From NCBI GenBank assembly GCA_964447005.1, contig CAYUQP010000006.1, forward strand, positions 13,640 to 77,639: DNA of 64,000 nucleotides, written 5' to 3'. Shown in pieces: positions 2,293 to 35,873 of the stretch. Under the pieces are notes generated by a model. The model searched no databases. It was not told the DNA's origin and worked only from the letters and a program-made list of their open reading frames with translations. Both the position numbers and the translations under genes were made by a program. Numbering within the stretch: position 1 is the stretch's first letter; each line of letters begins with the position of its first letter. Source of the stretch: an uncultured Bacteroidales bacterium (GTDB taxonomy: Bacteria; Bacteroidota; Bacteroidia; Bacteroidales; JAGOPY01).

Positions 2293-5200
2293 ATGATTGA
2301 AAAAATAATCAGATTTTCTATACGAAACAAGTTTATCATCGGTCTTTTCATTTTTGGACTGATTGCCTGGGGGACTTATTCACTGGTGCACCTGCCGATC
2401 GATGCAGTGCCGGATATCACCAATAACCAGGTGCAGGTTATTTCACTTGCTCCTTCACTGGCAGTGCAGGAAGTGGAGAGCTTCATTACGGCTCCGATTG
2501 AAGTATCTGTAGCCAATATCCCGGATGTTCTGGAACTGCGGTCCATTTCGAGGCTGGGATTATCAGTGGTTACGGTTGTATTTAAAGACAATGTTGATAT
2601 TTACTGGGCACGCCAGCAAATAGGTGAACGGTTACGTGAAGCGGAGGACCAGATCCCGCAAGGCTTAGCCAAAATTGAAATGGCGCCAATTTCTACGGGA
2701 CTTGGAGAAATTTTCCAGTACACGCTTGAATTAGAAGAAGGTTACAAAGACAAATACTCCATAAGGGATTTGCGGACTTACCAGGACTGGATCGTGCGCC
2801 GGCAAATGCTCGGAACGCCTGGTGTTGCTGATGTTAACAGCTATGGTGGATTTGTCAAACAATATGAGATTGCGGTAAATCCTTCAAGACTCAGGGCTAT
2901 GGGGCTTACCCTTACCGATATTTTTGAAGCACTTGAAAAAAACAATGAAAATACCGGAAGCGCTTATATTGACAAGAAACCTGTAGCCTATTTCATCAGG
3001 GGCATCGGTCTGGTCAAAACGCTTGAGGATATAGAAAATATCGTCGTGAAAAGCATCAATGGCATCCCGGTACTTGTTCGCGATGTGGCCACGGTCCAAT
3101 ATGGCAATGCAACACGGTATGGTGCTCTTGTTTCTGACACCAGTGAAGCGGTAGGTGGAGTGATCATGATGCTTAAGGGGGCGAATGCAAATGAAGTGAT
3201 CAAGGATGTCAAAGACAAGATTGCATCCATTCAAAAATCACTTCCGAAAGGTATCGAAATAGTCCCTTACCTGGATCGCACGCATCTGGTCAACCGGGCC
3301 ATTGGAACAGTTTCCCGGAACCTTATTGAGGGTGCCCTTATCGTGATCTTTATCCTGGTTTTATTGCTGGGCAATTTAAGGGCAGGATTGATCGTCGCCT
3401 CAGTGATTCCTCTTGCCATGTTGTTTGCAATAGGTATGATGAGGTTATTCGGCGTTTCAGGTAACCTGATGAGCCTTGGAGCCATTGATTTCGGACTGAT
3501 CGTTGACGGGGCAGTTATCATCGTGGAAAGTGTGGTTCACCGGATTTCCTTCAGCAAATCGAAATATTTAGGACTGAAAAGGTTGAACCAACAGCAAATG
3601 GATGAAGAAGTGTTCCAGGCTTCAAGTAAGATCAGGACTGCCGCAGCCTTTGGCGAAATAATCATCCTTATTGTTTATCTCCCCATCCTGGCTCTGGTCG
3701 GAATTGAAGGTAAAATGTTCCGCCCTATGGGCCAGGTTGTCAGTTTTGCCATCCTGGGCGCTTTCATTCTTTCACTAACCTGGATTCCAATGATATCTTC
3801 TATTTTCCTCAGCAAGAATACGGAACATAAGCGCAACATTTCAGACCGGATTATGGATTTCTTTCAGAAAGCTTTTCATCCGGTTATTATGTTTGCCCTC
3901 AGGCACAAATTGGCAGTAGTAATTACCTCAGTATTATTATTTATCGGTAGCCTGTTTATGTTCAACCGGCTTGGCGGTGAATTTATTCCCCAGTTGGAAG
4001 AAGGTGACCTGGCTGCTCTTGTGATCACTTTGCAGGGCGGATCTCCATCGAATACGGTTGAAGTGGTAAAAAAAGCAAATACCATATTACGCGACAATTT
4101 TCCGGAGGTCAAACATATTGTGTGTAAGATCGGACCAGGGGAAATACCTACCGATCCTACTCCGATGGAAACCGGTGACTATATCATCACCTTGAAAGAC
4201 AAGAGTGAATGGACCACCGCAAAAACCCGGGAAGAACTTGTTGAAAAAATGGAAGAAAAGCTTGCGGTTCTGGCTGGCGTGAAATTCGAATTTCAGCAAC
4301 CGATCCAACTTCGGTTCAATGAACTGATGACCGGATCCAGACAGGATGTGGCGATAAAGCTGTTCGGCGACAACCTGGATACCCTGGCACTAAAAGCGGC
4401 AGAAATAGAGGAAATGATCCGTAATACGCCCGGAGTGGAAGATATTAATGTGGAAAAAGTTACCGGACTTTCACAAATTCAGGTAGATTATAACCGGCAA
4501 AGGATGGCGCAATATGGCATATCTGTCGATGATATCAATAAAATCCTGAAAGCGGCATTTGCGGGAAGCTCTGCCGGAGTAGTATTTGATGAAGAAAAAA
4601 GATTTGATCTTGTGGTGCGGTTGGACAAAGAACATCGTCAGGATATTTCCGATGTCAAAAACCTGAGCATTGCATTACCTGATGGACGGCTCATCCCTCT
4701 CGACCAGGTTGCAGAAGTTGCCATCAAATCAGGCCCTGCTCAGGTATCCAGGGAAAATACAAAACGGCGCCTAACCATAGGTTTTAACGTTCGCGGCAGG
4801 GATGTAGAAAGCGTTGTAAATGAAGTTCAGGGAATCCTGGATTCAAGACTGAAACTGCCGGTTGGATATTATACGACCTATGGAGGACAGTTTGAAAACC
4901 TTGTTGCGGCGCGGGAGCGGCTTGCCATCGCAGTACCTGTTGCCTTGATTCTTATATTCGTATTACTATTCTTTACTTTCCATTCCGTAAAACAATCCAT
5001 ACTGATCTTTACAGCTGTGCCAATGGCTGCAATCGGTGGCGTGGTGGCACTTTGGCTGAGAGATATGAACTTTTCCATTTCGGCAGGCGTTGGCTTTATT
5101 GCACTGTTCGGCGTGGCAGTGTTGAATGGTATCGTTCTGATCGCTGAATTCAATCGCCTGGAGAAAGATGGAGTCTCGGATATCACTGAAAGGGTATTGA

Positions 5201-6681
5201 AAGGATTAAAAACCCGACTGAGGCCTGTAATAATGACAGCCGCGGTGGCATCATTTGGATTTTTGCCGATGGCTTTGTCAACCTCAGCGGGAGCAGAAGT
5301 TCAAAAGCCCCTCGCAACCGTTGTTATTGGAGGACTTATCACTTCTACCCTTTTGACGCTGGTCGTGTTACCGGTTTTATATATCCTTTTTTCCAAAGGA
5401 AATTTCAAGCTCCGGATCAAACGGAAAAAAATAGGGACTGCTTCTTTACTGGTATTATTAACAATAGGATTGCTATACAATGGTAAATTAACAGGCCAGG
5501 ACTCAAAACCGATTACGCTTCAGAATGCCATCAGGATGTCCATGGACAGTAATCTTGCCATAAAGTCCTCCGCCTTTTCGGTTGAAGCCCAAAAGACTCT
5601 GAAGAAGGCGGCATGGGATCTTCCTAAAACCAGCATTGATGCCCAGTACGGTCAGATTAACTCCTATATCAAAGACAACAGCTTTGCAGTTAACCAGTCA
5701 TTTGCATTTCCTACAGTCTACGTAAACCAGCAAAATCTGGCAGGTGCAAATGTAAACATTACTGAATGGCAACTGAAAGCGACTCAACTTGAAATTGCAG
5801 GGCAAATAAAGCAATTATACTGGCAGCTGGCCTACCTGTATTCTAAACGCGATTTATTATCTTACCAGGATAGCCTTTTCAGTGGTTTCTTAAGGGCAGC
5901 TGAACTCCGGGCAAAGACCGGTGAAACAAACCGGTTGGAAATGATCACAGCCCGCTCTCAAAGTCTGGAAGTTAAAAACCAATTGCAACAAACCAATGCG
6001 GATATCAGCATTCTTAGCCGAAACTTTAACACTATTTTAGGTGTCGAATCCGGGTATTATCCCGCTGATTCGGTACTGCGACGTGCTGACTTTACTCCGT
6101 CGTTTGATACTGCCTCACTTAGTTTTAATCCGACGCTTGGTTATTTGCAACAGCAGGTAGAAGTAGCCCGGATGGAAAAGAAACTGGAAAGCAGCAGGAT
6201 GCTGCCTGATCTAAATATTGGATTTTTTAGTCAGACTATGATCGGAATCCAGGAAGTTGACGGATCTCTGCAAACCTTCAGCAATGGAGACCGTTTTAAC
6301 GGCCTGCAGGCAGGCATTACCGTTCCGCTTGTGTTTGGTCCCTATTCTTCAAAAATCAAGGCTGCAAAAATTCAGGAACAGGTAGCACAAACGAATTCAG
6401 AATATTATGCCAGGTCTTTAACCGGGAGTTACAATTCCCTGCTGGATGAATACCGCAAATTTCTGAGCAGCCTGGAATATTATGAGCAGCAAGCTGTACC
6501 GGAGGCTGACCTGATCATCGAACAGGCAACAAAGGGCTATCAGGCCGGTGCGATGGATTATCTGGATTATATCCTTACCCTCAGCAGGGCATTGGATATC
6601 AAGCAAAATTATCTTGAAGCACTTAATAATTACAATCAGACCACCATTTCAATAGAATCAATTACAGGTAAAATATTTTAA
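2293..6681 (+). CDS. CzcA/CusA-family heavy-metal efflux RND permease fused at its C-terminus to a TolC/CzcC-like outer-membrane factor
   Basis: 1462 aa. The N-terminal ~1040 aa are a typical HME-RND protein (MIEKIIRFSIRNKF..., two large periplasmic loops). A hydrophobic linker (GTASLLVLLTIGLL) follows, then ~400 aa with OEP-type repeats (ITLQNAIRMSMDSNLAIKSS...YLDYILTLSRALDIKQNYLEALNNYNQT). Confidence 0.9.
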   Translation: MIEKIIRFSIRNKFIIGLFIFGLIAWGTYSLVHLPIDAVPDITNNQVQVISLAPSLAVQEVESFITAPIEVSVANIPDVLELRSISRLGLSVVTVVFKDNVDIYWARQQIGERLREAEDQIPQGLAKIEMAPISTGLGEIFQYTLELEEGYKDKYSIRDLRTYQDWIVRRQMLGTPGVADVNSYGGFVKQYEIAVNPSRLRAMGLTLTDIFEALEKNNENTGSAYIDKKPVAYFIRGIGLVKTLEDIENIVVKSINGIPVLVRDVATVQYGNATRYGALVSDTSEAVGGVIMMLKGANANEVIKDVKDKIASIQKSLPKGIEIVPYLDRTHLVNRAIGTVSRNLIEGALIVIFILVLLLGNLRAGLIVASVIPLAMLFAIGMMRLFGVSGNLMSLGAIDFGLIVDGAVIIVESVVHRISFSKSKYLGLKRLNQQQMDEEVFQASSKIRTAAAFGEIIILIVYLPILALVGIEGKMFRPMGQVVSFAILGAFILSLTWIPMISSIFLSKNTEHKRNISDRIMDFFQKAFHPVIMFALRHKLAVVITSVLLFIGSLFMFNRLGGEFIPQLEEGDLAALVITLQGGSPSNTVEVVKKANTILRDNFPEVKHIVCKIGPGEIPTDPTPMETGDYIITLKDKSEWTTAKTREELVEKMEEKLAVLAGVKFEFQQPIQLRFNELMTGSRQDVAIKLFGDNLDTLALKAAEIEEMIRNTPGVEDINVEKVTGLSQIQVDYNRQRMAQYGISVDDINKILKAAFAGSSAGVVFDEEKRFDLVVRLDKEHRQDISDVKNLSIALPDGRLIPLDQVAEVAIKSGPAQVSRENTKRRLTIGFNVRGRDVESVVNEVQGILDSRLKLPVGYYTTYGGQFENLVAARERLAIAVPVALILIFVLLFFTFHSVKQSILIFTAVPMAAIGGVVALWLRDMNFSISAGVGFIALFGVAVLNGIVLIAEFNRLEKDGVSDITERVLKGLKTRLRPVIMTAAVASFGFLPMALSTSAGAEVQKPLATVVIGGLITSTLLTLVVLPVLYILFSKGNFKLRIKRKKIGTASLLVLLTIGLLYNGKLTGQDSKPITLQNAIRMSMDSNLAIKSSAFSVEAQKTLKKAAWDLPKTSIDAQYGQINSYIKDNSFAVNQSFAFPTVYVNQQNLAGANVNITEWQLKATQLEIAGQIKQLYWQLAYLYSKRDLLSYQDSLFSGFLRAAELRAKTGETNRLEMITARSQSLEVKNQLQQTNADISILSRNFNTILGVESGYYPADSVLRRADFTPSFDTASLSFNPTLGYLQQQVEVARMEKKLESSRMLPDLNIGFFSQTMIGIQEVDGSLQTFSNGDRFNGLQAGITVPLVFGPYSSKIKAAKIQEQVAQTNSEYYARSLTGSYNSLLDEYRKFLSSLEYYEQQAVPEADLIIEQATKGYQAGAMDYLDYILTLSRALDIKQNYLEALNNYNQTTISIESITGKIF

Positions 6682-9444: not shown

Positions 9445-11532
9445 ATGAAAAAATATCTTTTAAAAAACATGGACTGTGCATCATGTGCTTCAAAAATTGA
9501 AGACCACCTGACAAAGCTGGATAAGGTAAAATTTGTAAATGTAAATTTTGCTCATTCAAGCCTTACTATTGATACTGATGATTTCGAAATGGTAAAAGCC
9601 CGAATAAAAGAGATAGAACCGGAAGTGGAAGTAGAAGAAAACAATAAAGAGAAAATATTGGTTTCAACAAACGAGCTTAAAGAAAATAAATGGACCATTA
9701 TTAAAGCAGTTTCCGGGTTTCTGTTTTTACTTGCAGGTATAATATTCAGAGAAGAAATACACAATACACCCTATCATATTGCTGAATATTTAATATTTGG
9801 AACTGCTTACCTTATCGTAGGCTGGAAGGTTATTTCATCTGCCGTAAAAAATATAATCAGGGGGCAGTTGTTTAACGAACAGTTTTTAATGACCATAGCT
9901 ACTCTTGGAGCATTTGCAATAGATGAAATGCCCGAAGCTGTTGCTGTAATGCTGTTTTATGTTGTCGGGGAGCTCTTCCAGGATATTGCGCTTAACCGTT
10001 CCCGAAAGTCAATTAAATCGCTGCTTGAAATAAAACCTGATTTTGCCAATTTATTGTTGGATGGAGAATTGACAAGGGTTTCACCTGAGAGTATTGAAAT
10101 AGGTGATATAATTATGGTTAAGGCAGGAGAAAAAATTCCAGTCGATGGCGAAGTTATGGATGGTATTTCATTTGTCGATACTTCGGCTTTGACCGGTGAA
10201 AGTGTGCCACGAAAATTGGAAAAAAATGATATGGCTTTGTCCGGAACTATTAATCAAACCGGGGTGCTTACAATAAAGGTGACCAAATTATTCAGCGAAT
10301 CGTCTGTGACAAAAATTTTGGAACTGGTTGAAAACGCCTCCTCTAAAAAAGCGGAAACCGAAAAGTTCATCACAACGTTTGCCAAATACTATACCCCGGT
10401 TGTGGTTGTTGGAGCTTTGCTGCTTGCAATATTGCCTCCCCTTTTGTTTAGCGGGCAAACTTTCAGTGATTGGATTTACCGTGCGCTGGTTGTATTGGTT
10501 ATTTCCTGTCCCTGCGCATTGGTCATTAGTATTCCGCTGGGATATTTCGGCGGCATAGGCAGTGCTTCAAGAAAAGGAATCCTGGCGAAAGGCTCCAACT
10601 TTCTGGATGCTTTAACGAAGGTTAGGGCTGTGGTATTTGATAAAACAGGCACACTCACTAAGGGTGAATTTAAGGTTTCAGAGGTTGTTACCTCCAACGG
10701 TTTTTCTAAAGAAGAAATATTAGAATATGCTGCTTATGCTGAAACCAATTCAAACCACCCGGTGGCTAAGTCAATTACTGAGGCTTTCGGAAAAAATAAA
10801 GATATCACCCGAATTAATCAAGTTGAAGAAATTTCCGGGCATGGCATTAAGGCTGTAATTGATATGAAAACCGTGCTTGCCGGGAATGATAAATTCCTTC
10901 ATAAGGAAAATATTACCCACCCGGTTTGTAACGTGGAAGGAACAGTGGTACATGTAGCTATTGATAGCACCTATGCCGGGTACATTATTATTTCGGACAC
11001 ATTGAAAGATGATGCCATTGAAGCAATAGAAAAGTTAAAAGCAAAGAATATTCAAACAATAATGCTTACCGGCGACAACAAATTTGCTGCAGCAACCTTT
11101 GCCAAAAAATTAAAGATAGACAGATACTTTTATGAACTGTTGCCCGATGATAAGGTCAAACATATAGAGGATTTAATTACAGAATTTAAGGGTGGAAAGG
11201 TGGCTTTTGTCGGAGATGGAATAAATGATGCACCGGTAATCGCTCGAGCCGATATTGGAATAGCCATGGGCGCTCTTGGATCAGATGCAGCTATTGAAAC
11301 TGCTGATGTGGTGCTGATGACCGATTCACCTTCGAAAGTCGCCATAGCTATTGATGTTGCAAAAAGAACAAGAAACATTGTCTGGCAGAATATCTTTTTT
11401 GCATTGGGCGTAAAACTTGTTTTTATAATTCTTGGCGTTTTAGGAATTGCCACCATGTGGGAAGCAGTATTCGGCGATATAGGAGTAGCGTTAATCGCTG
11501 TATTTAATGCAATCAGGATACTAAGAGGTTAA
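9445..11532 (+). CDS. Heavy-metal translocating P1B-type ATPase (Zn/Cd/Co/Pb type)
   Basis: HMA domain MDCASCASKIEDHL, TM CPC motif (SCPCALVIS), DKTGTLT, HP, GDGINDAP. ATG at 9445 is preferred over the GTG at 9439. Confidence 0.95.
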   Translation: MKKYLLKNMDCASCASKIEDHLTKLDKVKFVNVNFAHSSLTIDTDDFEMVKARIKEIEPEVEVEENNKEKILVSTNELKENKWTIIKAVSGFLFLLAGIIFREEIHNTPYHIAEYLIFGTAYLIVGWKVISSAVKNIIRGQLFNEQFLMTIATLGAFAIDEMPEAVAVMLFYVVGELFQDIALNRSRKSIKSLLEIKPDFANLLLDGELTRVSPESIEIGDIIMVKAGEKIPVDGEVMDGISFVDTSALTGESVPRKLEKNDMALSGTINQTGVLTIKVTKLFSESSVTKILELVENASSKKAETEKFITTFAKYYTPVVVVGALLLAILPPLLFSGQTFSDWIYRALVVLVISCPCALVISIPLGYFGGIGSASRKGILAKGSNFLDALTKVRAVVFDKTGTLTKGEFKVSEVVTSNGFSKEEILEYAAYAETNSNHPVAKSITEAFGKNKDITRINQVEEISGHGIKAVIDMKTVLAGNDKFLHKENITHPVCNVEGTVVHVAIDSTYAGYIIISDTLKDDAIEAIEKLKAKNIQTIMLTGDNKFAAATFAKKLKIDRYFYELLPDDKVKHIEDLITEFKGGKVAFVGDGINDAPVIARADIGIAMGALGSDAAIETADVVLMTDSPSKVAIAIDVAKRTRNIVWQNIFFALGVKLVFIILGVLGIATMWEAVFGDIGVALIAVFNAIRILRG

Positions 11533-22232: not shown

Positions 22233-23948
22233 ATGGTTCCATTAATAAAGAAAAAAATGAAAATCATTAGTATAATAATTCTGCTATGCCTAAGCTTAGC
22301 AGGCAATGCACAAAATCAGATTTCTTTTCCTGAAGTGTTGACTGGTACAGATTTTTCTCTTACAATTCATTATGATAGTGTACAATTCTTGCCGGGAATA
22401 AAAACATTAACCAATGCTTTTAATAATAACACCTACCTGGGGCCAATCTTAATTCTGAACAAAGGGGATCTTGTTACAATGAATGTTGAAAATCAGTTAA
22501 ATGATACTTCCACAGTTCATTGGCACGGATTGCATGTTCCAGCTGCCGATGATGGCGGCCCACATACTCCCATTATGGCGGGCGCCACCTGGTCACCTGA
22601 TTTCGTCGTTATGAATAACGCTTCCATGTACTGGTATCACCCGCATTTGCATATGAAAACCGGGATGCAGGCTATGCGCGGAGCTGCCGGCTTAATAATT
22701 GTTCGTGATCCTGAGGAAGCTGAACTAAATCTGCCCAGGCATTATGGCGAAGATGATTTTCCGCTGGTAGTACAGACACAGGAGTTCAATACCAACAACC
22801 AGATTCTGTGGCGTGGTATGCACGACAGCATTATCATGGTAAATGGCATCATAAATCCTGCTCTCGATGTCCCGGCACAAGTTATACGGTTGCGCTTGCT
22901 TAATGCAGCACAGGAAAGGAATTTCAATTTCGGCTTATCGGGAAACCGGGACTTTTATGTAATAGGGAATGATGGAGGCTTGATACCACAACCCGTAAAT
23001 GTAAACCGTATCAGGCTTTCACCGGGTGAAAGGGCAGAAATACTCGTTGATCTGGCAGGCATGAATGGCCAGGTTATTTATTTAATGAGTTACGCCTCTG
23101 AATTGCCTCCCGGAGTTCAGGGCGGGCCGCCAATGATGGGAATGGATACTTCGATGTACAGCCCTCTTAATGGGATTGATTTTAATATGCTACAACTTCA
23201 GGTAGTGAATCCCCTTGATAATCCTGTTACAACTATTCCTGCTTCACTCGTCGAAGTAAATCCATGGCTCCCAGAGATAGCGGATACTACACGATTAATC
23301 AATATCACGGCTGAAAATATGATGTCGATGGACGGCCCGTTTTTTTTCAATGATCAGTTGTTTGAAATGGAGCGGATTGATTAGCAAATCCCCCTTAATA
23401 ACCTTGAAATATGGTCAATTTCAAATGAAACAATGGTGGCTCATCCCTTTCACATTCATGATGTCCAGTTTTTTGTTCTCGACAGGGATGGAATTACAGT
23501 CAATGCGGAGGAGGCCGGTTATAAAGACGTTGTGATGGTAGGCCCAAATGAAACGGTAAATCTGATTACAAAATTTGAGGATTTTGCCGATACAACCGTA
23601 CCATATATGTATCATTGCCACATTCTCATGCATGAAGATGATGGAATGATGGGACAGTTTATTGTCGTACCGGGGACTTCGACTGGATTAGAGGATAGGG
23701 AAAAAGGCAAGAATGAATTAAAAGTTTTCCCCAATCCTGTTGATGATCAACTTCTGATTGAATTTCCAGATGGTTCTGCTCCGAAATTATTCAGCTATAG
23801 GATAGTGAACAATTTGGGAATGGCCTTTGAATACTCAACCAATTATAATCAAAAGATAATCAATGTATCCAAGCTTACACCCGGACTTTACCTACTACTG
23901 ATTGAGTTTGAAAATAAGATCTATACAGGAAAATTGATCAAAAATTGA
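22233..23948 (+). pseudogene. Multicopper oxidase (CotA/CueO-like) with a T9SS C-terminal sorting domain, interrupted by a single in-frame TAG at 23382-23384
   Basis: HWHGLHVP (Cu site) in the 5' ORF; HPFHIHD and MYHCHILMHEDDGMMGQF in the 3' ORF. Both ORFs are in the same frame and read through as ...FEMERID*QIPLNNLEIWSISNETMVAHPFHIH. The likely true start is the ATG at 22257 (MKIISIIILL). Confidence 0.85.
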
Positions 23949-24044
23949 CAAATCATTAGTTAGATTACCCTTGTTAACTTCCTTTAATTCAAAAAAAAAA
24001 TTCGACTTTTTATATCTGGTAAAAGATTAATATGCACCGGATAA

Positions 24045-24072
24045 ACAAAAAACCGGCTGACTGCTCAGCCGG
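24045..24072 (-). terminator. Rho-independent terminator of the ArdC-N-like gene
   Basis: ccggctga-ctgc-tcagccgg hairpin, followed on the minus strand by a T-run (a-run at 24046-24052 on plus). Confidence 0.75.
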
Positions 24073-24096
24073 TCCTTGCTTGTGGGATGACCTTCG

Positions 24097-24543
24097 TCAG
24101 AAAGGCAGGTCTTCACCAACGGTTTCAGGGACAAGAGCCTGGTTGGTTTCTGTTTTATCCGTTGCAGGTTCTTTGAAGTTGCGAACTGTTCTTTCGACCT
24201 GGGTATTATTGAAAACAAACAAGATCTGGAAGTAAGAATAGGTCTCGCCTGTTTCCTTATTCGTTGATTCCTGTTTCTTTCCCCATATCATCTGAGCAGT
24301 TTCGCCCTTGCGTACTGAGTAACCGGCAGCTTGCCAAAGTTCCAAAGTGAGCCACACCTGGTTCTTCTTTTTACCGTTGTAAGAATCCAGGAGGGCATCG
24401 TTCAAGTTTGTAGCTTTGATTTTACCGGCTTCCATAAGTTCTTTCACTGCTTTGGAGGTCTTCTTTAAGTTTTCTCTCCGTTCGGTCATTTTGTTTGTAT
24501 TTTCCATCTTTTTTGCCCCTGCCCCGGGGTCTTGTGTTGGCAT
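24097..24543 (-). CDS. ArdC-N-terminal-domain-like ssDNA-binding protein with an SSB-type acidic C-terminal tip
   Basis: YNGKKKNQVWLTLELWQAAGYSVRKGETAQMIWGKK resembles the ArdC/DUF1738 motif (W.T..Q....G..VRKGEK). The C-terminus ...GEDLPF is like the SSB D-D-D-I/L-P-F tip. An alternative start is the ATG at 24507. Confidence 0.45.
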   Translation of the reverse strand: MPTQDPGAGAKKMENTNKMTERRENLKKTSKAVKELMEAGKIKATNLNDALLDSYNGKKKNQVWLTLELWQAAGYSVRKGETAQMIWGKKQESTNKETGETYSYFQILFVFNNTQVERTVRNFKEPATDKTETNQALVPETVGEDLPF

Positions 24544-24562
24544 CTGGCTCGCCTGTTAATGA

Positions 24563-24689
24563 ATTATGCACGAAAAAAAAGGTAGTGAGATGACCCGGCA
24601 AGGTTTCATGTCTCTTTTGTCTGCAAAAGTGAACGAACATAGCCTGACCTTGCAAGGTGAAATAGAACGAATATACCTTTGTGCATAAT
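24563..24689 (-). other. 127-nt extended multi-stem hairpin 20 nt upstream of the ArdC-N-like gene start (structured leader or ssDNA-promoter-like element)
   Basis: Pairings read directly: attatgcac/gtgcataat, aaaggta/taccttt, gcaaggt/accttgc, cttttg-tctg-caaaag. Confidence 0.5.
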
Positions 24690-25168
24690 ATTCATGACTG
24701 GAAAGAGCCAGAAATGCAAAAAACCACCCAGCAGGAAAGCCGGGAAATACGAAAATGAACGATGGAGTTAGAAAACTGAAGATCTTCAATCAATGAATGA
24801 ACAGAAGCCTGGGTAAAAGGCTACAAACCAATGCCCGGAGGCCACAAGCAAAAAAGTCAGGTCGCTCATTCAGGAGCTTAAGCTGGACCGGACCAGCAAG
24901 GGCTAACAAGATACCTATGGGGAAGAAGGAATCGCAAGGAGGCAGGTCAGATACCATTATCCGGAGTCAAGTGTTTTCATCCAGGTCGTAGTTCTGGATT
25001 GAGCAGGAAACCAAATATGTGCATACCAGTTGCTTGTATGGCCAGTGGTGAGGCTGACAAGGTTCCTATCCGCTGACACAAACGCTAATAATGGGCAGAG
25101 TGCTTCAAATTCGCACAGACCCTGCCACTGGATATTCACGAAATTACGCGTACAGTATAACTAGTTTT

Positions 25169-26152
25169 TTAAGTAAAATCATCAAAGGTATCTCCGCCTG
25201 ACCATTCCAAGCCTTGTGCAAGTTTAAAGTGTTTTTCCGCACCGTCTTGCTTGAAAAAACTTCCAAGACTATTATGAACAAAGAAATCATTTATATAAGT
25301 CACCTCTGCTAAAGAATAAGGTTTTACTGCATCCTCATCACTATTTCTGCCCATAATCCATAAAGTATTTTCGTCTTTGGAAATTGCAAAACCTTCAATA
25401 ATAGTGTTTGAATACTGATTTCGTGAAAATATTTTTTCTGCTTTCAAGTTTGCAAAATAAGCAGTAATTGGATTATTACTCATGGATTGCGGACAACATG
25501 GAAATTCAGTTGGTGTTTTCCAATTCTTTTGTTTAACATTTGGCGTTAAGGAGAGGGTAAATTCTTGAATGTAAGCAACATTTGTTTTTGGTAAACTCCT
25601 ATTGTATATCCATTCTCCTAAAGAACCCCCAGCCGGAAGTTTTTCACTTTCTGCCCAAGCCAATAGTCTTTTTTTACTTGCTTGTGCTTCTTGAATACTC
25701 ACTGTACACATCCAGTCATAATTCGGCTCCTGAAACTTGCTACGGAATTTTGAAGGGTTGGAAAGAAATTCCTCAACGCTACAGCCACAAGCTATTTCAA
25801 TTCGCTTTACTGTAATTGGATTAAGCAAGACATTTTCTAACCTCGTTACCCATCGAAGATTATCAGGTCTATTATTCTGTTTGTTGGTATCAATATGGTC
25901 AACAACATGTTCTTTGGTAGGTGGTTCTCCGTGAAATGCAGTAGCAACTATTCTGTGAATACGAACTGAAGCAATTTCTAAATAACCTGTCTTGCTGTTT
26001 GGTTTGCCAAAAGTCCATTTATTGTCTGTCGGTCGAGTTCGTTTATTGTTAGGAGCGTGTCTTAATACAGCACCATTATCCCGAACAGAGTAATGCTCAT
26101 TTTTATAATGGCATTCTTGAATGCCATTATACGTTTCAAGTAAATTTTCCAT
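25169..26152 (-). CDS. HNH endonuclease (NUMOD4-like N-terminus plus HNH_3 motif) with a ~200-aa uncharacterised C-terminal domain
   Basis: HYSVRDNGAVLRH; HRIVATAFHGEPPTKEHVVDHIDTNKQNNRPDNLRWVTRLENV. Confidence 0.8.
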   Translation of the reverse strand: MENLLETYNGIQECHYKNEHYSVRDNGAVLRHAPNNKRTRPTDNKWTFGKPNSKTGYLEIASVRIHRIVATAFHGEPPTKEHVVDHIDTNKQNNRPDNLRWVTRLENVLLNPITVKRIEIACGCSVEEFLSNPSKFRSKFQEPNYDWMCTVSIQEAQASKKRLLAWAESEKLPAGGSLGEWIYNRSLPKTNVAYIQEFTLSLTPNVKQKNWKTPTEFPCCPQSMSNNPITAYFANLKAEKIFSRNQYSNTIIEGFAISKDENTLWIMGRNSDEDAVKPYSLAEVTYINDFFVHNSLGSFFKQDGAEKHFKLAQGLEWSGGDTFDDFT

Positions 26153-31018: not shown

Positions 31019-32398
31019 CTACCAGTCTGTCAATTTCTTTGCAATCTCTTTCTTCTGTTCGTCTTCAAAGCTGTCCAGGTAGTTTTCAGTGGTCTTGATA
31101 TCGGTATGACCTAATGCATCGCTGATAAAGGTTACATTGACGCCTGACCGTTTCAGGACGGTTGCAAAGGAATGCCTGGCGGTGTATGTGGTAACCCTGT
31201 GTTCGATGCCGACTTTAGCTGCAACTTTGTTAATGTATACATTGATCATCTGGACCGCCTGTGCTACTATGGCATGTTTCTTTTCAGGAGACTGCTCATT
31301 GGTCAGGAAAGGAAAGATGAAGCTATCGGGATGAACTGGTTTATTCCCCCAGCGATCAATGATTTGCTGCACTTTATCGGTCAGGATGATATCAATAGGC
31401 CTTGAATTGCGGTTTGTATTGATCGTTTTTGCCCTTCTGAAATAAATATGATCACCTTGTATATTAGAATACTTTAACCAGCAAACGTCCTTTATATTCA
31501 TGCCATTGCAGAGGTAGGAGAAAATCCAGAGATCCCGGTAAAAATACTCCGGATCGTCACTCTCCGGCTGGTATTTAAAGATCTTCTCAATCTCAGCAAT
31601 TTTCAGAGCTTTCTTAATGTTCTGTGGTTGTGGGATCTCATATCTGCCCTTACCGAAGGGATAGTCTTCCTGTTTGACAATTCCCTCTTTAATGGCCTCG
31701 TTAAAAAGATAACGCAGACTACGGAGATAGATTGAGACCGTGGTTTGTGAGGTGCCTTTTAAGATCATATGAGATTCATATTTTTTTAAGAATTGCGGGG
31801 TAATGCTTTTAAAGGACAATCTTTTTTCTCCAGCAAATGCTTTTATTGAATTCCTGGAATAGGTGTAATTATTTGCACTGCCGAACTGTTGATTTCCTTT
31901 TAATACTTTAATGTAATCATCATAGGCACCATATACATCATCCTTGATCCTATCCGGATCGAGGAAGCGTTTTTCAAATTTTTCAAAAGAAAAGGATTCC
32001 ATGTCATAGATTATTTCCAATGCCCTCCGGAGATTTTCGTGGAAAATGATCTTCTTTTCTTTAAGGTCCCCTCTGGTCTTCGGTCCAATTGTCTTTAACC
32101 AATCCTCAGGCAGCATCTGAACTTTTGTAGAATAGAATTTCGAGAATCGTTTGTGTATGATCTGTAATCTGACTGTCGAGGTCCCATCTTTCCTGAGTCT
32201 GACAGTATCTAAGATTACAGAAACTGATACCCTCTTTTGCTTTAGAAGGGCAAAATTCTGTTCCGGATGCGTTATTGTCGGTAATTTTTCCTTTTTCTTC
32301 CGCGTCTTTTTTTCCTCCGGATTGACATTTTTGACATTTTTTTCAAATTGGGCATCTTTCTTTGCCTCAATTTTATTAGCTTTACCAGATGGTGCCAT
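31019..32398 (-). CDS. Tyrosine site-specific integrase (Bacteroidetes type with an N-terminal arm-binding/SAM-like domain)
   Basis: ARHSFATVLKRSGVNVTFISDALGHTDIKTTENYL (R...H-x-x-R...Y catalytic region); Lys-rich N-terminus. Confidence 0.92.
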   Translation of the reverse strand: MAPSGKANKIEAKKDAQFEKNVKNVNPEEKKTRKKKEKLPTITHPEQNFALLKQKRVSVSVILDTVRLRKDGTSTVRLQIIHKRFSKFYSTKVQMLPEDWLKTIGPKTRGDLKEKKIIFHENLRRALEIIYDMESFSFEKFEKRFLDPDRIKDDVYGAYDDYIKVLKGNQQFGSANNYTYSRNSIKAFAGEKRLSFKSITPQFLKKYESHMILKGTSQTTVSIYLRSLRYLFNEAIKEGIVKQEDYPFGKGRYEIPQPQNIKKALKIAEIEKIFKYQPESDDPEYFYRDLWIFSYLCNGMNIKDVCWLKYSNIQGDHIYFRRAKTINTNRNSRPIDIILTDKVQQIIDRWGNKPVHPDSFIFPFLTNEQSPEKKHAIVAQAVQMINVYINKVAAKVGIEHRVTTYTARHSFATVLKRSGVNVTFISDALGHTDIKTTENYLDSFEDEQKKEIAKKLTDW

Positions 32399-34532: not shown

Positions 34533-35873
34533 TTATTCAGGGGACTTCAGGTTGAATTTTTTGATCTTGTTGTACAGGGTTACCCGGTCAACTTTCAGCG
34601 CTTTGGCCGTCCGGGATATATTCCAGTCGTATTTGTTCAGGATCTGAAGGATGAATGCTTTCTCGAATTCATCCAGGCTTTCGACGGATGAACTGACCTC
34701 ATGAGCGGCAATCGGCAGGTCTTTAAGCTGGATCCGTTTTCCGTTGCCAATGACCAGCGCCCGCTCGATCATATTCTCCAGCTCCCTTATATTGCCGGGA
34801 AACGGGTATTCTTCCAGCCTCTTCAAAGCCTGTGTATCAATGGCTACCGACGGCTTGTTCATCGAAGTGCAATACTTGCGGATGAAATAATCGACCAGCA
34901 GCGGAGTATCCTCCGTCCTTTCCCTCAACGGCGGAATGTGAATGTTCACCACGTTCAGCCGGTAATAAAGATCTTCCCGGAACTCGCCTTTCTCAACCAT
35001 GGTTTTCAGGTCCCTGTTGGTTGCGCAGATGAGCCTGAAATCCGAAGTGATCTCCTTGTTCCCTCCCACCCGGGTAAATGTCTTGGTTTCAAGCACCCGC
35101 AACAGCTCCACCTGCATTTTCGGCGAGATGGTACCAATTTCGTCGAGAAAGATCGTACCGCTGTCGGCCATTTCAAAACGTCCCTTCCGGTTGTAAAGAG
35201 CCCCGGTGAAGGCACCTTTTTCATGGCCAAACAACTCGCTTTCGAGCAGGCTTTCTGTCAGGGCGCCGCAGTGCACACTGACCAGCGGGTAGAACTTCCG
35301 GGGCGAGTTAAAATGGATCGCCCTGGCTATCAGCTCCTTGCCTGTACCACTCTCTCCCGTGATGATCACTGACGAACTGGACTGCGCCACGCTTTCCACC
35401 TCCTCCAGCACTTTTTTCATGGCCTCGCTGTTCCCGATGATGTCGCCCACATGCTCCAGGGAAACGACTTTTCTTTTGAGATTCTCATTCTCCTCTGCCA
35501 GGACGATCTGTTTGGAAGCATTCCGGATCAGGTGCGAAAGGTCGTCCGGATCGAAAGGCTTGGTGACATAATCATACGCGCCGTCTTTCAGAGCCTTCAC
35601 CGCGGTGTCAACCGTCGCAAAAGCCGTCATGACAATGACGATGGCATCTTTTCTCAGGGTTTTGATCCGCCGCAGCATTTCCAGCCCGTCCATCCCCGGC
35701 ATCTTCAGATCCGCGAGAATAATATCATAATCCTCCGATTCAAGGATCTGCAATGCCCGTTTCGCATGTTCGGCACATTTAACATGATATCCGTCATCGG
35801 TGAACCAGTCACGCAACGAATCTCTGACGGATTGCTCATCATCGACAATTAAAATGGAGATTTTCCTGGCCAT
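34533..35873 (-). CDS. Sigma-54-dependent response regulator (NtrC/AtoC/ZraR family: REC + AAA+ + Fis HTH)
   Basis: ILIVDDE...DLKMPGMDG; GESGTGKE Walker A; GAFTGA loop; C-terminal NISRTAKALKVDRVTLYNKIKKF. Confidence 0.95.
   Translation of the reverse strand: MARKISILIVDDEQSVRDSLRDWFTDDGYHVKCAEHAKRALQILESEDYDIILADLKMPGMDGLEMLRRIKTLRKDAIVIVMTAFATVDTAVKALKDGAYDYVTKPFDPDDLSHLIRNASKQIVLAEENENLKRKVVSLEHVGDIIGNSEAMKKVLEEVESVAQSSSSVIITGESGTGKELIARAIHFNSPRKFYPLVSVHCGALTESLLESELFGHEKGAFTGALYNRKGRFEMADSGTIFLDEIGTISPKMQVELLRVLETKTFTRVGGNKEITSDFRLICATNRDLKTMVEKGEFREDLYYRLNVVNIHIPPLRERTEDTPLLVDYFIRKYCTSMNKPSVAIDTQALKRLEEYPFPGNIRELENMIERALVIGNGKRIQLKDLPIAAHEVSSSVESLDEFEKAFILQILNKYDWNISRTAKALKVDRVTLYNKIKKFNLKSPE

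Follow-up and report, generated by a model that had tools for sequence, protein, structure and literature searches.

Single-stranded DNA (ssDNA) promoters explain how F-like plasmids can express genes that counter defence systems or inhibit the SOS response ahead of second-strand synthesis. In F and ColIb-P9, Frpo drives the early expression of ssb, psiB and ard from the incoming strand, and second-strand synthesis silences it (PMC9849209, PMC11541004). Only homology to Frpo or, in Proteobacteria, sigma-70 boxes have so far served to recognise such promoters (PMC11541004), and the mechanism has so far been described only for the F-like plasmids of enterobacteria. Promoters formed by DNA hairpins are also found in coliphage N4, where a 5-7-bp stem with a 3-nucleotide (nt) loop is extruded from supercoiled duplex DNA with host SSB and serves the single-subunit virion RNA polymerase of the phage (PMC4496689). 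In this study, we have analysed a stretch of 64,000 nt from an uncultured Bacteroidales bacterium (the window; all coordinates are in window numbering, and the + strand is the forward strand) and, within it, a long hairpin upstream of a gene for an ArdC-N-like ssDNA-binding protein. Based on covariation, promoter motifs and the geometry of the fold, we propose, with about even confidence, that this hairpin is a DNA-level ssDNA promoter for the ArdC-N gene, Frpo-like and built from Bacteroidota promoter motifs. The searchable literature yielded no description of an ssDNA promoter in Bacteroidota, nor of the core sequence that stands between the hairpin and the gene.

A hairpin under selection for pairing

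The long hairpin (Table 1) can lengthen to 24544-24713 through the pairing of CTGGCTC with the GAGCCAG of the core. All four nested pairings that a first-pass annotation had read at 24563-24689 are present, and the 172 nt from 24544 to 24715 fold as a single hairpin far better than dinucleotide shuffles, with z-scores of -4.65 (RNA, gene-sense), -5.55 (DNA, sense) and -4.82 (DNA, + strand, -27.6 kcal/mol) and 0/200 shuffles as good in each case. The compensatory changes that the same annotation had suggested looking for in homologous regions are also there. In a 13-sequence alignment, 97.8% of the cells are paired, as compared to at most 49% when the partners are slid, both sides have changed in 13 of the 38 pairs, and cells with a double change number 58 against 20.8 in shuffles (0/500); these double changes mostly separate two clades, so that there are few independent events per pair. 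Between the two clades of ArdC-N leaders, stem segments at the same places differ in both arms: ATGCAC/GTGCAT against ATGGGC/GCCCAT, CAAGGT/ACCTTG against TTTTGCT..GGC/GCCAGCAAAA, and CTTTTG/CAAAAG against CTTTC/GAAAG. The hairpin is conserved in ~20 related loci, some relatives carrying extra whole hairpins at the apex of the domain. It is real, and it is under selection for pairing.

The wider region to which the hairpin had been assigned, 625 nt at 24544-25168 described as stem-rich and raised in G+C content, fared less well. As a whole it is no more structured than shuffles (z -0.66 and -0.83). The further helices noticed on its right (24985-25175) are at chance level (z +0.59), and 24988-25168, which is conserved in no related locus, is not part of the hairpin element. 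The G+C content is elevated with respect to the HNH side (0.42-0.49 versus 0.31-0.39), falling at ~25100-25170 from ~0.45-0.49 to the 0.31-0.39 of the HNH gene, but not with respect to the ArdC-N gene (0.42-0.47). On the right, the interval is bounded by this HNH_3 endonuclease gene (25169-26152, minus strand; Pfam E 1.9e-18). On the left, the ArdC-N gene, also on the minus strand, had been taken from a mechanical open reading frame (ORF) at 24097-24543 (Pfam ArdcN E 6.2e-05), and this edge did not hold: the ATG at 24543 sits within a conserved noncoding element, 14 of the 66 copies of that element do without this ATG, and of the 52 copies that have it only 10 keep it in frame with the gene. 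Judging by this comparison, the ATG does not start the gene, and the 12 "codons" with which the mechanical ORF opens belong to the noncoding element. As the real start is the ATG at 24507, many homologues being called from MENTNK, the noncoding region is 24508-25168.

A scan with Rfam, another of the checks proposed beforehand, gave no match on the element: there were zero matches at the gathering threshold in the window, nothing relevant in 24000-25700 at E ≤ 10, and nothing falling on the modules described below at E ≤ 1 in five related loci. Elsewhere in a related locus, L042, DUF805b RNA is matched at 3504-3537 on the minus strand (38.6 bits, above the gathering score), in intergenic DNA after a 128-amino-acid gene of a module array.

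Promoter motifs, strand preference and the conserved core

The hairpin of the window is one instance of a module made of a variable hairpin domain followed by a nearly invariant core, of which we found 69 distinct copies, carried by Bacteroidales islands and by phage contigs. The genes that follow the core encode two ArdC-N types, full-length ArdC, RadC/JAB, Zn-ribbon and SLOG-like small proteins, a SymE-like protein and others; they are always on one strand, in arrays that reach six modules. In other modules the hairpin domain, of 130-230 nt and in some cases branched, is wholly different.

What nearly all hairpin domains share is a short sequence near their 5' base, CAAAGGTA or CAAAGTTA, which on the opposite strand reads TAnnTTTG. 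The Bacteroidota primary sigma factor, sigma-ABfr, has the consensus TTTG at -33 and TAnnTTTG at -7 (PMC7366714). Between -260 and -120 from the core, an exact TAnnTTTG is present antisense to the gene in 35/69 modules and in sense orientation in 0/69, with ~4 expected from background, and one-mismatch boxes (TAnnTTCG, TAnnTTTA and others) occupy the same position in most other hairpin-bearing modules, including those of the second ArdC-N clade. Over whole arrays, 47 antisense boxes face 10 sense boxes. An alignment of the arms of the 35 modules, anchored at the box, shows that C[C/A]TT[T/G]A is kept in at least six unrelated hairpin classes, with TT at -24/-23 and a spacer of ~20 nt, an arrangement of -33 and -7 elements that matches the published consensus. 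At the locus itself, the -7-like box that the first-pass annotation had seen on the 3' arm does exist (TACCTTTT, with one mismatch; its counterpart in the other ArdC-N clade is TACCTTCT), but what is conserved, and exact, is the box with which it pairs on the + strand. No sense-oriented box was found within 670 nt upstream of ArdC-N, and the 320 nt examined upstream of each of the 69 cores hold three, at -268 to -298. Other genes of the window (integrase, AAA_21 and XRE) do have sense boxes, 17-63 nt before their ATG; to judge from these motifs, the organism clearly uses the sigma-ABfr code in the ordinary way for such genes.

The position of the antisense box within the fold is equally regular. 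In ~30 of the 35 modules it is located in the helix that closes the whole domain, and the nucleotides just downstream of it pair with those at -8 to -22 before the core (-10 to -18 from GGCG in the window family), so that initiation on the folded template strand would lead straight into the gene. In the largest class, the sense arm facing the box keeps TTTG without TA, the TAnn half of the box lying in an internal loop, and in other hairpin classes the sense-strand position that matches TACCTTTT is also without TA. This loss of TA opposite the box is the look that would be expected of a promoter working only in the folded single strand. The fold also prefers one strand: with DNA parameters the template strand is the more stable in 33/35 modules, and its z-score against its own shuffles is the lower in 30/35 (means -4.7 versus -3.8). 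For class A (13 sequences), the consensus fold of the template strand reaches -26.4 kcal/mol with 41 pairs, 14 of them compensatory, whereas that of the sense strand stops at -9.4 kcal/mol, with 20 pairs, of which 4 are compensatory. These per-strand z-scores and alifold energies replaced a crude count of G-T versus A-C mismatches (89 versus 117), which was too noisy. Because a structure of the template strand cannot be mRNA, and an antisense RNA would run away from the domain, DNA is the simplest carrier of the fold. On the plasmid pFA13, a copy of the core without a big hairpin is preceded, at 17 nt, by a near-consensus sense box, from which the start site would fall at the place expected from the hairpin geometry.

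Based on these features, expression of the ArdC-N gene could proceed as follows. In duplex DNA, the gene lacks a sense sigma-ABfr box, and the sole complete promoter, CTTG-N21-TACCTTTG (24649-24681, + strand), faces away from it. Once single-stranded, the + strand, which is the template of the gene, would fold into the hairpin, with the -33 element on the apical side and the -7 box on the basal side. A quasi-duplex promoter would result, in which the box-bearing arm acts as the non-template strand and the facing arm, 24561-24600, as the template. Host RNA polymerase is predicted to start 10-17 nt upstream of GGCG and to exit through the base of the hairpin into the gene. The transcript would open with a conserved 5' untranslated region (5' UTR) made of GGCGAGCCAGAUGCC, the small hairpin with its GGGCA loop and an A-rich spacer before the AUG. 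Conversion to duplex DNA would switch sense expression off, so the SSB-tailed ArdC-N product (see below) would be made only while the element is single-stranded.

In the core, GGCGAGCCAGATGCC is followed by a strongly covarying small hairpin that has a GGGCA loop; from the end of this hairpin, 5-12 nt remain to the true ATG. Across 66 copies, 97.1% of the cells of the small stem are paired (21-59% in slid controls), and 81 cells show double changes as compared to 26.6 in shuffles (0/500); the variants of GGCGAGCCAGATGCC at the GGC/GCC positions are all wobble-compatible on the sense strand. Bacteroidetes mRNAs are enriched in A upstream of the AUG (PMC7366714). The core is present before other genes in the same loci, and a pattern scan of IMG/VR contigs found it in 19/26 hits, often in several copies. 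It is common to all family members, including operon-internal genes without a big hairpin. Cores with T at the fifth position (GGCG-T-GCC; seen in L036, L039, L042, L043, L047, L049 and L053) are mostly without an upstream hairpin and stand 12-24 nt after the preceding stop codon, and the core therefore works independently of the hairpin; GGCG-A-GCC cores usually follow one. Most simply, the core would be part of the mRNA, and it probably acts at the RNA level, through translation, stability or factor binding. The earlier suggestion of a structured leader RNA can thus be kept for the last ~46 nt before the start codon, that is the core with its small hairpin, but not for the large hairpin. As far as these comparisons go, the core is a new, strongly covarying motif of 69 copies without an Rfam family.

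A BLAST search of plasmids and phages with the consensus core returned one genuine match, in a Bacteroidota phage-plasmid, Fulvitalea axinellae pFA13 (NZ_AP025327.1, 6002-6052), where the core precedes a small gene upstream of parA, parB and dam and is itself preceded by two operator-like inverted repeats (TTGTTAG...CTAAC) in place of the large hairpin. As this phage-plasmid belongs to the Cytophagales, the core is not restricted to Bacteroidales. A 34-nt look-alike, GAAGCCTGATGCAATAAGTCCGCAGGGCTGCGGC, lies among iterons beside repB in pKOX_NDM1 (NC_021501.1, 5001-5034) and recurs in ~149 enterobacterial IncFIB plasmids; it is probably a chance resemblance, because its hairpin and loop differ. 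We also considered, and did not adopt, a sigma-54 promoter reading of the core: GGCGAGCCAGATGCC has the GG-N10-GC spacing of sigma-54 promoters, but only about half of its letters agree with the TGGCAC-N5-TTGCW consensus, and its "N5" portion is invariant among the copies, unlike that of sigma-54 promoters. No activator was identified in this comparison; at 34533-35873, the host encodes a sigma-54-type activator.

Importantly, there are both likenesses and clear differences between this module and the systems described so far. With Frpo and ssi elements it shares a long, stable, imperfect stem-loop of the template strand that restores the two promoter boxes of the host, correctly spaced, in a quasi-duplex stem whose template arm leads into the genes (the z-scores being those given above for the + strand and, as a mean, for the template strands of 35 modules). 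It also shares the neighbourhood of establishment genes of the ssb/psiB/ard type that face one way (here ArdC-N, full-length ArdC, RadC/JAB and others), the presence of several copies per region and the prediction that it is off in duplex DNA. The differences are that the boxes are those of sigma-ABfr (TTTG/TAnnTTTG) and not of sigma-70 (TTGACA/TATAAT), that at least six unrelated hairpin classes, some branched, are combined with an invariant 5'-UTR core, and that the elements, whose activity is predicted, lie in integrative islands and tailed-phage contigs of Bacteroidota and not beside a known oriT. With blastn, neither window 24000-25300 nor a 7.3-kb module array matched any of 72,556 plasmids (PLSDB, including F-like ones), and the region and arrays had no BLAST match among phages; lacking any such match, the element does not count as homologous to Frpo. 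An ssDNA promoter of the Frpo/ssi type had been raised in the first-pass annotation, and the idea is favoured by the covariation, the antisense promoter, the geometry, the strand preference and the ard/ssb-like genes; what was not borne out is the arm on which the box lies.

The N4 promoters are likewise template-strand DNA hairpins of a phage, repeated before early genes and needing single-strand character, but they are far from a 130-230-nt domain with the sigma-factor boxes of the host, and no virion polymerase was seen in our loci. The ssoA and ssoU signals of rolling-circle plasmids and of integrative and conjugative elements are also strand-specific ssDNA hairpins recognised by host RNA polymerase through promoter-like sequences; they make a short primer and are not positioned relative to a gene, whereas here the core fixes the register of every copy to a start codon. 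The attC sites of integrons resemble the modules as imperfect inverted repeats between codirectional small genes, conserved in structure over sequence, in which one DNA strand folds, but the repeats studied here are upstream of genes and bear promoters. The attC reading was not adopted: the complementary RYYYAAC/GTTRRRY pair was not found at the two ends (GTTTAAC precedes the core in some classes, without a complementary partner at the other end), and the integrase is of the Phage_int_SAM_5/Arm-DNA-bind_5 type and not IntI.

Weighing the readings of the hairpin

In favour of an ssDNA promoter, the downstream genes are the set served by Frpo (ArdC, ArdC-N, RadC and small anti-restriction-like proteins), on one strand and with several modules per array. 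A number of observations weigh against it. No oriT, relaxase or conjugation (type IV secretion system) genes were found in the window or in the loci examined; around the related loci there are phage portal and structural genes instead. As the main caveat, many of the copies belong to tailed phages, whose DNA is expected to enter as duplex, and the source of an ssDNA template there is unexplained. The duplex form of the same box should, by its sequence, fire antisense, which may not be harmless, and the one-mismatch sense box TACCTTTT on the 3' arm could give some activity in duplex DNA. TAnnTTTG occurs in the 64 kb at chance level (59 versus 54.5 expected), so a single box is not significant alone, and the counts across the 69 modules and their loci include related sequences that are not phylogenetically independent. 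Finally, the consensus fold of the type-1 family, to which the window belongs, is nearly equal on the two strands (-21.0 versus -19.6 kcal/mol), and the strand assignment at this locus therefore rests on the other classes and on the shared architecture.

The phage copies deserve a separate word. Several module-bearing contigs are tailed phages with unidirectional genes; in L053, the array is followed by more such genes and by a portal homologue, whose identity to the portals of Polaribacter phage Leef_1 and of Microcystis phages is 26-27% across 93% of its length (E ~1e-30). A PDB sequence search with the neighbouring DUF6712 protein gave nothing informative, and a terminator scan between the genes of this array did not separate transcription units. 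We can only speculate that ssDNA arises in such phages during replication, or by 5'->3' resection of the entering end, which would expose the template strand of inward genes. At the level of the family, it is possible, and we put it forward tentatively, that mobile elements and phages of Bacteroidota share an undescribed, widespread anti-defence expression module that would combine ssDNA-active hairpins, diverse in sequence though conserved in structure, with a sigma-ABfr antisense arm, and a universal 5'-UTR element of GGCGAGCCAGAUGCC and the GGGCA loop, whether the ssDNA is exposed after conjugative entry, during replication or by 5'->3' resection of the entering linear phage end.

An unlikely alternative is that the antisense box is an ordinary duplex promoter for an antisense or divergent RNA, the hairpin being a separate DNA element (a protein-binding, recombination or replication signal). 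Such an RNA would run right from ~24686 through 24714-24987 and, in arrays, against the preceding gene. With both its -33 and its -7 element in place, the promoter would work in duplex DNA, the type-1 family has a conserved 270-nt noncoding stretch exactly downstream, the related locus L001 carries divergent small ORFs past that stretch, and the phage copies would be well suited by a scheme that needs no single-stranded stage. Yet this alternative does not explain why, in every class, the region downstream of the promoter is complementary to the sequence adjacent to the core, nor the covariation of the domain and its better fold on one strand; the putative RNA is without a supported structure or ORF over 24690-24995, and the anti-defence genes are left without any promoter. 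It would also put 4-8 head-on promoters into unidirectional gene arrays, and as these are hard to rationalise, the ssDNA hairpin stays ahead. A further reading, which we consider distinctly unlikely, is that ArdC-N has a long 5' leader, made from an unrecognised upstream promoter, in which the hairpin would form as RNA and act on translation, stability or termination. The adjacent core certainly behaves as an RNA element, the base of the hairpin can pair in the window with the GAGCCAG of the core as a sequestering leader would, and the type-1 consensus fold is as good in sense as on the template strand (38 pairs, 13 compensatory, several G-U pairs). Such a leader would need a sense promoter, and the scarcity of sense boxes upstream of the cores stands against it, as do the greater stability of the domain on the template strand, which is decisive for class A, and the lack of an Rfam family match; the conserved, correctly spaced promoter of the opposite strand within the stem would be left unexplained.

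A role in replication overlaps with the ssDNA-promoter reading: the hairpin, as a strand-specific, promoter-bearing ssDNA hairpin, might be an ssi/sso-type single-strand initiation signal that primes the complementary strand, gene expression being incidental, and Frpo itself has been described as both a promoter and a site of primer RNA (Masai and Arai 1997, as cited in PMC11541004 and PMC9849209). We rate this as improbable, as the modules are in fixed register with the start codon through the core and reach six copies per array, one per transcription unit, which exceeds the needs of priming. A decayed protein-coding gene would suit a region that is long for intergenic DNA (625 bp) and holds mechanical ORFs of 55-77 amino acids. 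However, the absence of a convincing ORF noted at the outset was upheld: on both strands of 24544-25168, and of 24714-24987 within it, no frame is kept, the stop codons differ in place across all frames among homologues, and the indels, mostly of 1, 2 or 5 nt, are mostly not multiples of 3, so that a pseudogene or small ORF was rejected. A chance inverted repeat would have neither a fold better than 200/200 shuffles nor compensatory changes that keep the pairing in ~20 loci. With the frame analyses negative and covariation found, both of these last explanations can be regarded as already refuted.

Gene family, neighbouring features and implications

The ArdC-N-like protein has 62 homologues of 135-148 amino acids, from Bacteroidales metagenomes and metagenome-assembled genomes. 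All 22 aligned members of the family (alignment A1) end in (D/E)DLPF (window 24097-24114), which we take to resemble the acidic C-terminal tip of bacterial SSB (DDDIPF). In bacteria, this tip recruits the SSB-interacting proteins; by analogy, the ArdC-N-like protein may mimic the SSB tail or compete for its partners. In a comparison set of 27 loci encoding ArdC-N relatives, the noncoding DNA upstream of the gene is conserved as far as ~24987, and nothing is shared further right.

Table 1. Features of the ArdC-N locus, in window coordinates
Feature	Position	Strand	Description
Intrinsic-terminator-like hairpin	24048-24077	-	13-pair stem followed by a T run, 20 nt past the ArdC-N stop codon
ArdC-N-like ssDNA-binding protein gene	24097-24507	-	ATG at 24507; begins MENTNK, ends EDLPF; Pfam ArdcN
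A-rich spacer AAAAAAG	24508-24514	-	From the small hairpin to the start codon; 5-12 mostly A-rich nt in all copies (alignment A5)
Small hairpin GACCCC-GGGGCA-GGGGC	24515-24531	-	5-bp stem, one bulged nt, invariant RGGGCA loop
Near-invariant box GGCGAGCCAGATGCC	24539-24553	-	69 distinct modules, 40+ loci
Long imperfect hairpin (type-1 domain)	24561-24693	.	z -4.65 to -5.55; covariation in 13 homologues
Predicted 5' end of ArdC-N mRNA	24564-24568	-	Start expected 4-7 nt past the box on the folded template strand
TACCTTTT, gene-sense 3' arm	24577-24584	-	Pairs with the + strand box; one mismatch; TTG just 14 nt upstream
-33-like element CTTG	24649-24652	+	21-nt spacer to the -7 box; read from sequence
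Exact sigma-ABfr -7 box TACCTTTG	24674-24681	+	Antisense to the gene, within the stem
Conserved noncoding stretch, ArdC-N (type-1) family only	24714-24987	.	77-89% identity in L001, L002 and L007-L012
Nonconserved spacer after the HNH gene	24988-25168	.	Without homology in any related locus; fold no better than shuffles

Purines strongly predominate on the + strand of the conserved stretch at 24714-24987 (AT skew up to 0.43), which contains no conserved ORF, and a consensus fold of 24700-24995 is unsupported on either strand (-3.2 and -4.6 kcal/mol). The conserved stretch would adjoin the antisense promoter on its downstream side, if that promoter fires in duplex DNA. Two terminator-like hairpins were seen around the gene on the minus strand. 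The one past its stop codon (Table 1) would, from its sequence, close a one-gene unit. The other, at 24727-24744 (CCCGGC...GCTGGG, then TGGTTTTTTG), lies immediately upstream of the big hairpin and could insulate ArdC-N from read-through of the HNH operon; its T run is not kept in relatives. A tRNA/tmRNA scan found none.

The left half of the window is a metal-resistance island, and the right half carries the HNH, XRE, AAA_21, AbiEii/AbiEi and tyrosine integrase genes. The HNH gene is not a conserved neighbour of ArdC-N: the closest relative, L001, has an integrase and three small ORFs in its place, and the block of HNH, XRE-HTH, AAA_21, AbiEii and AbiEi genes (from 25169 up to the integrase at 31019-32398) is swapped there for other genes. 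Flanked by the integrase and the ArdC-N module, this block has the look of a variable region for defence cassettes. In the metal-resistance island, the + strand ORFs 22233-23384 (383 amino acids) and 23433-23948 (171 amino acids, starting with MVAHPFHIHDVQFF) resemble two halves of one multicopper oxidase, and 22233-23948 may be a frameshifted or interrupted gene.

Traces of recombination were noticed in two of the related loci. L001 contains, at 11123-11333, a truncated second copy of ArdC-N, in which window 24507-24438 is joined to 24195-24048. It stands 4.7 kb downstream from the intact copy, and between the two lies cargo (an RF3-like GTPase, a Cpn60 fragment and a methyltransferase), an arrangement which suggests that the cargo entered by recombination within the ArdC-N gene. 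L004, a contig labelled Woesearchaeota, probably through a binning error, has two leaders. The first (3684-4123) consists of the upstream region and hairpin of the window clade, broken off inside the 3' arm and followed by 1.8 kb of unrelated DNA; the second (5840-6000) is complete, belongs to the other clade and has its gene. This double leader would be evidence of recombination at these hairpins.

If the hairpins act as we propose, transcription specific to the ssDNA state would extend beyond proteobacterial plasmids to another phylum and to phages. A nonhomologous analogue based on the Bacteroidota promoter code would show that this strategy has evolved independently. The copies in tailed phages pose the question of when and how phage DNA turns single-stranded early in infection. 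The core marks arrays of anti-defence genes, and a hairpin whose closing helix holds TAnnTTTG in antisense, with GGCGAGCCAGATGCC after it, would serve as a signature to find early anti-defence genes in gut and environmental Bacteroidota.

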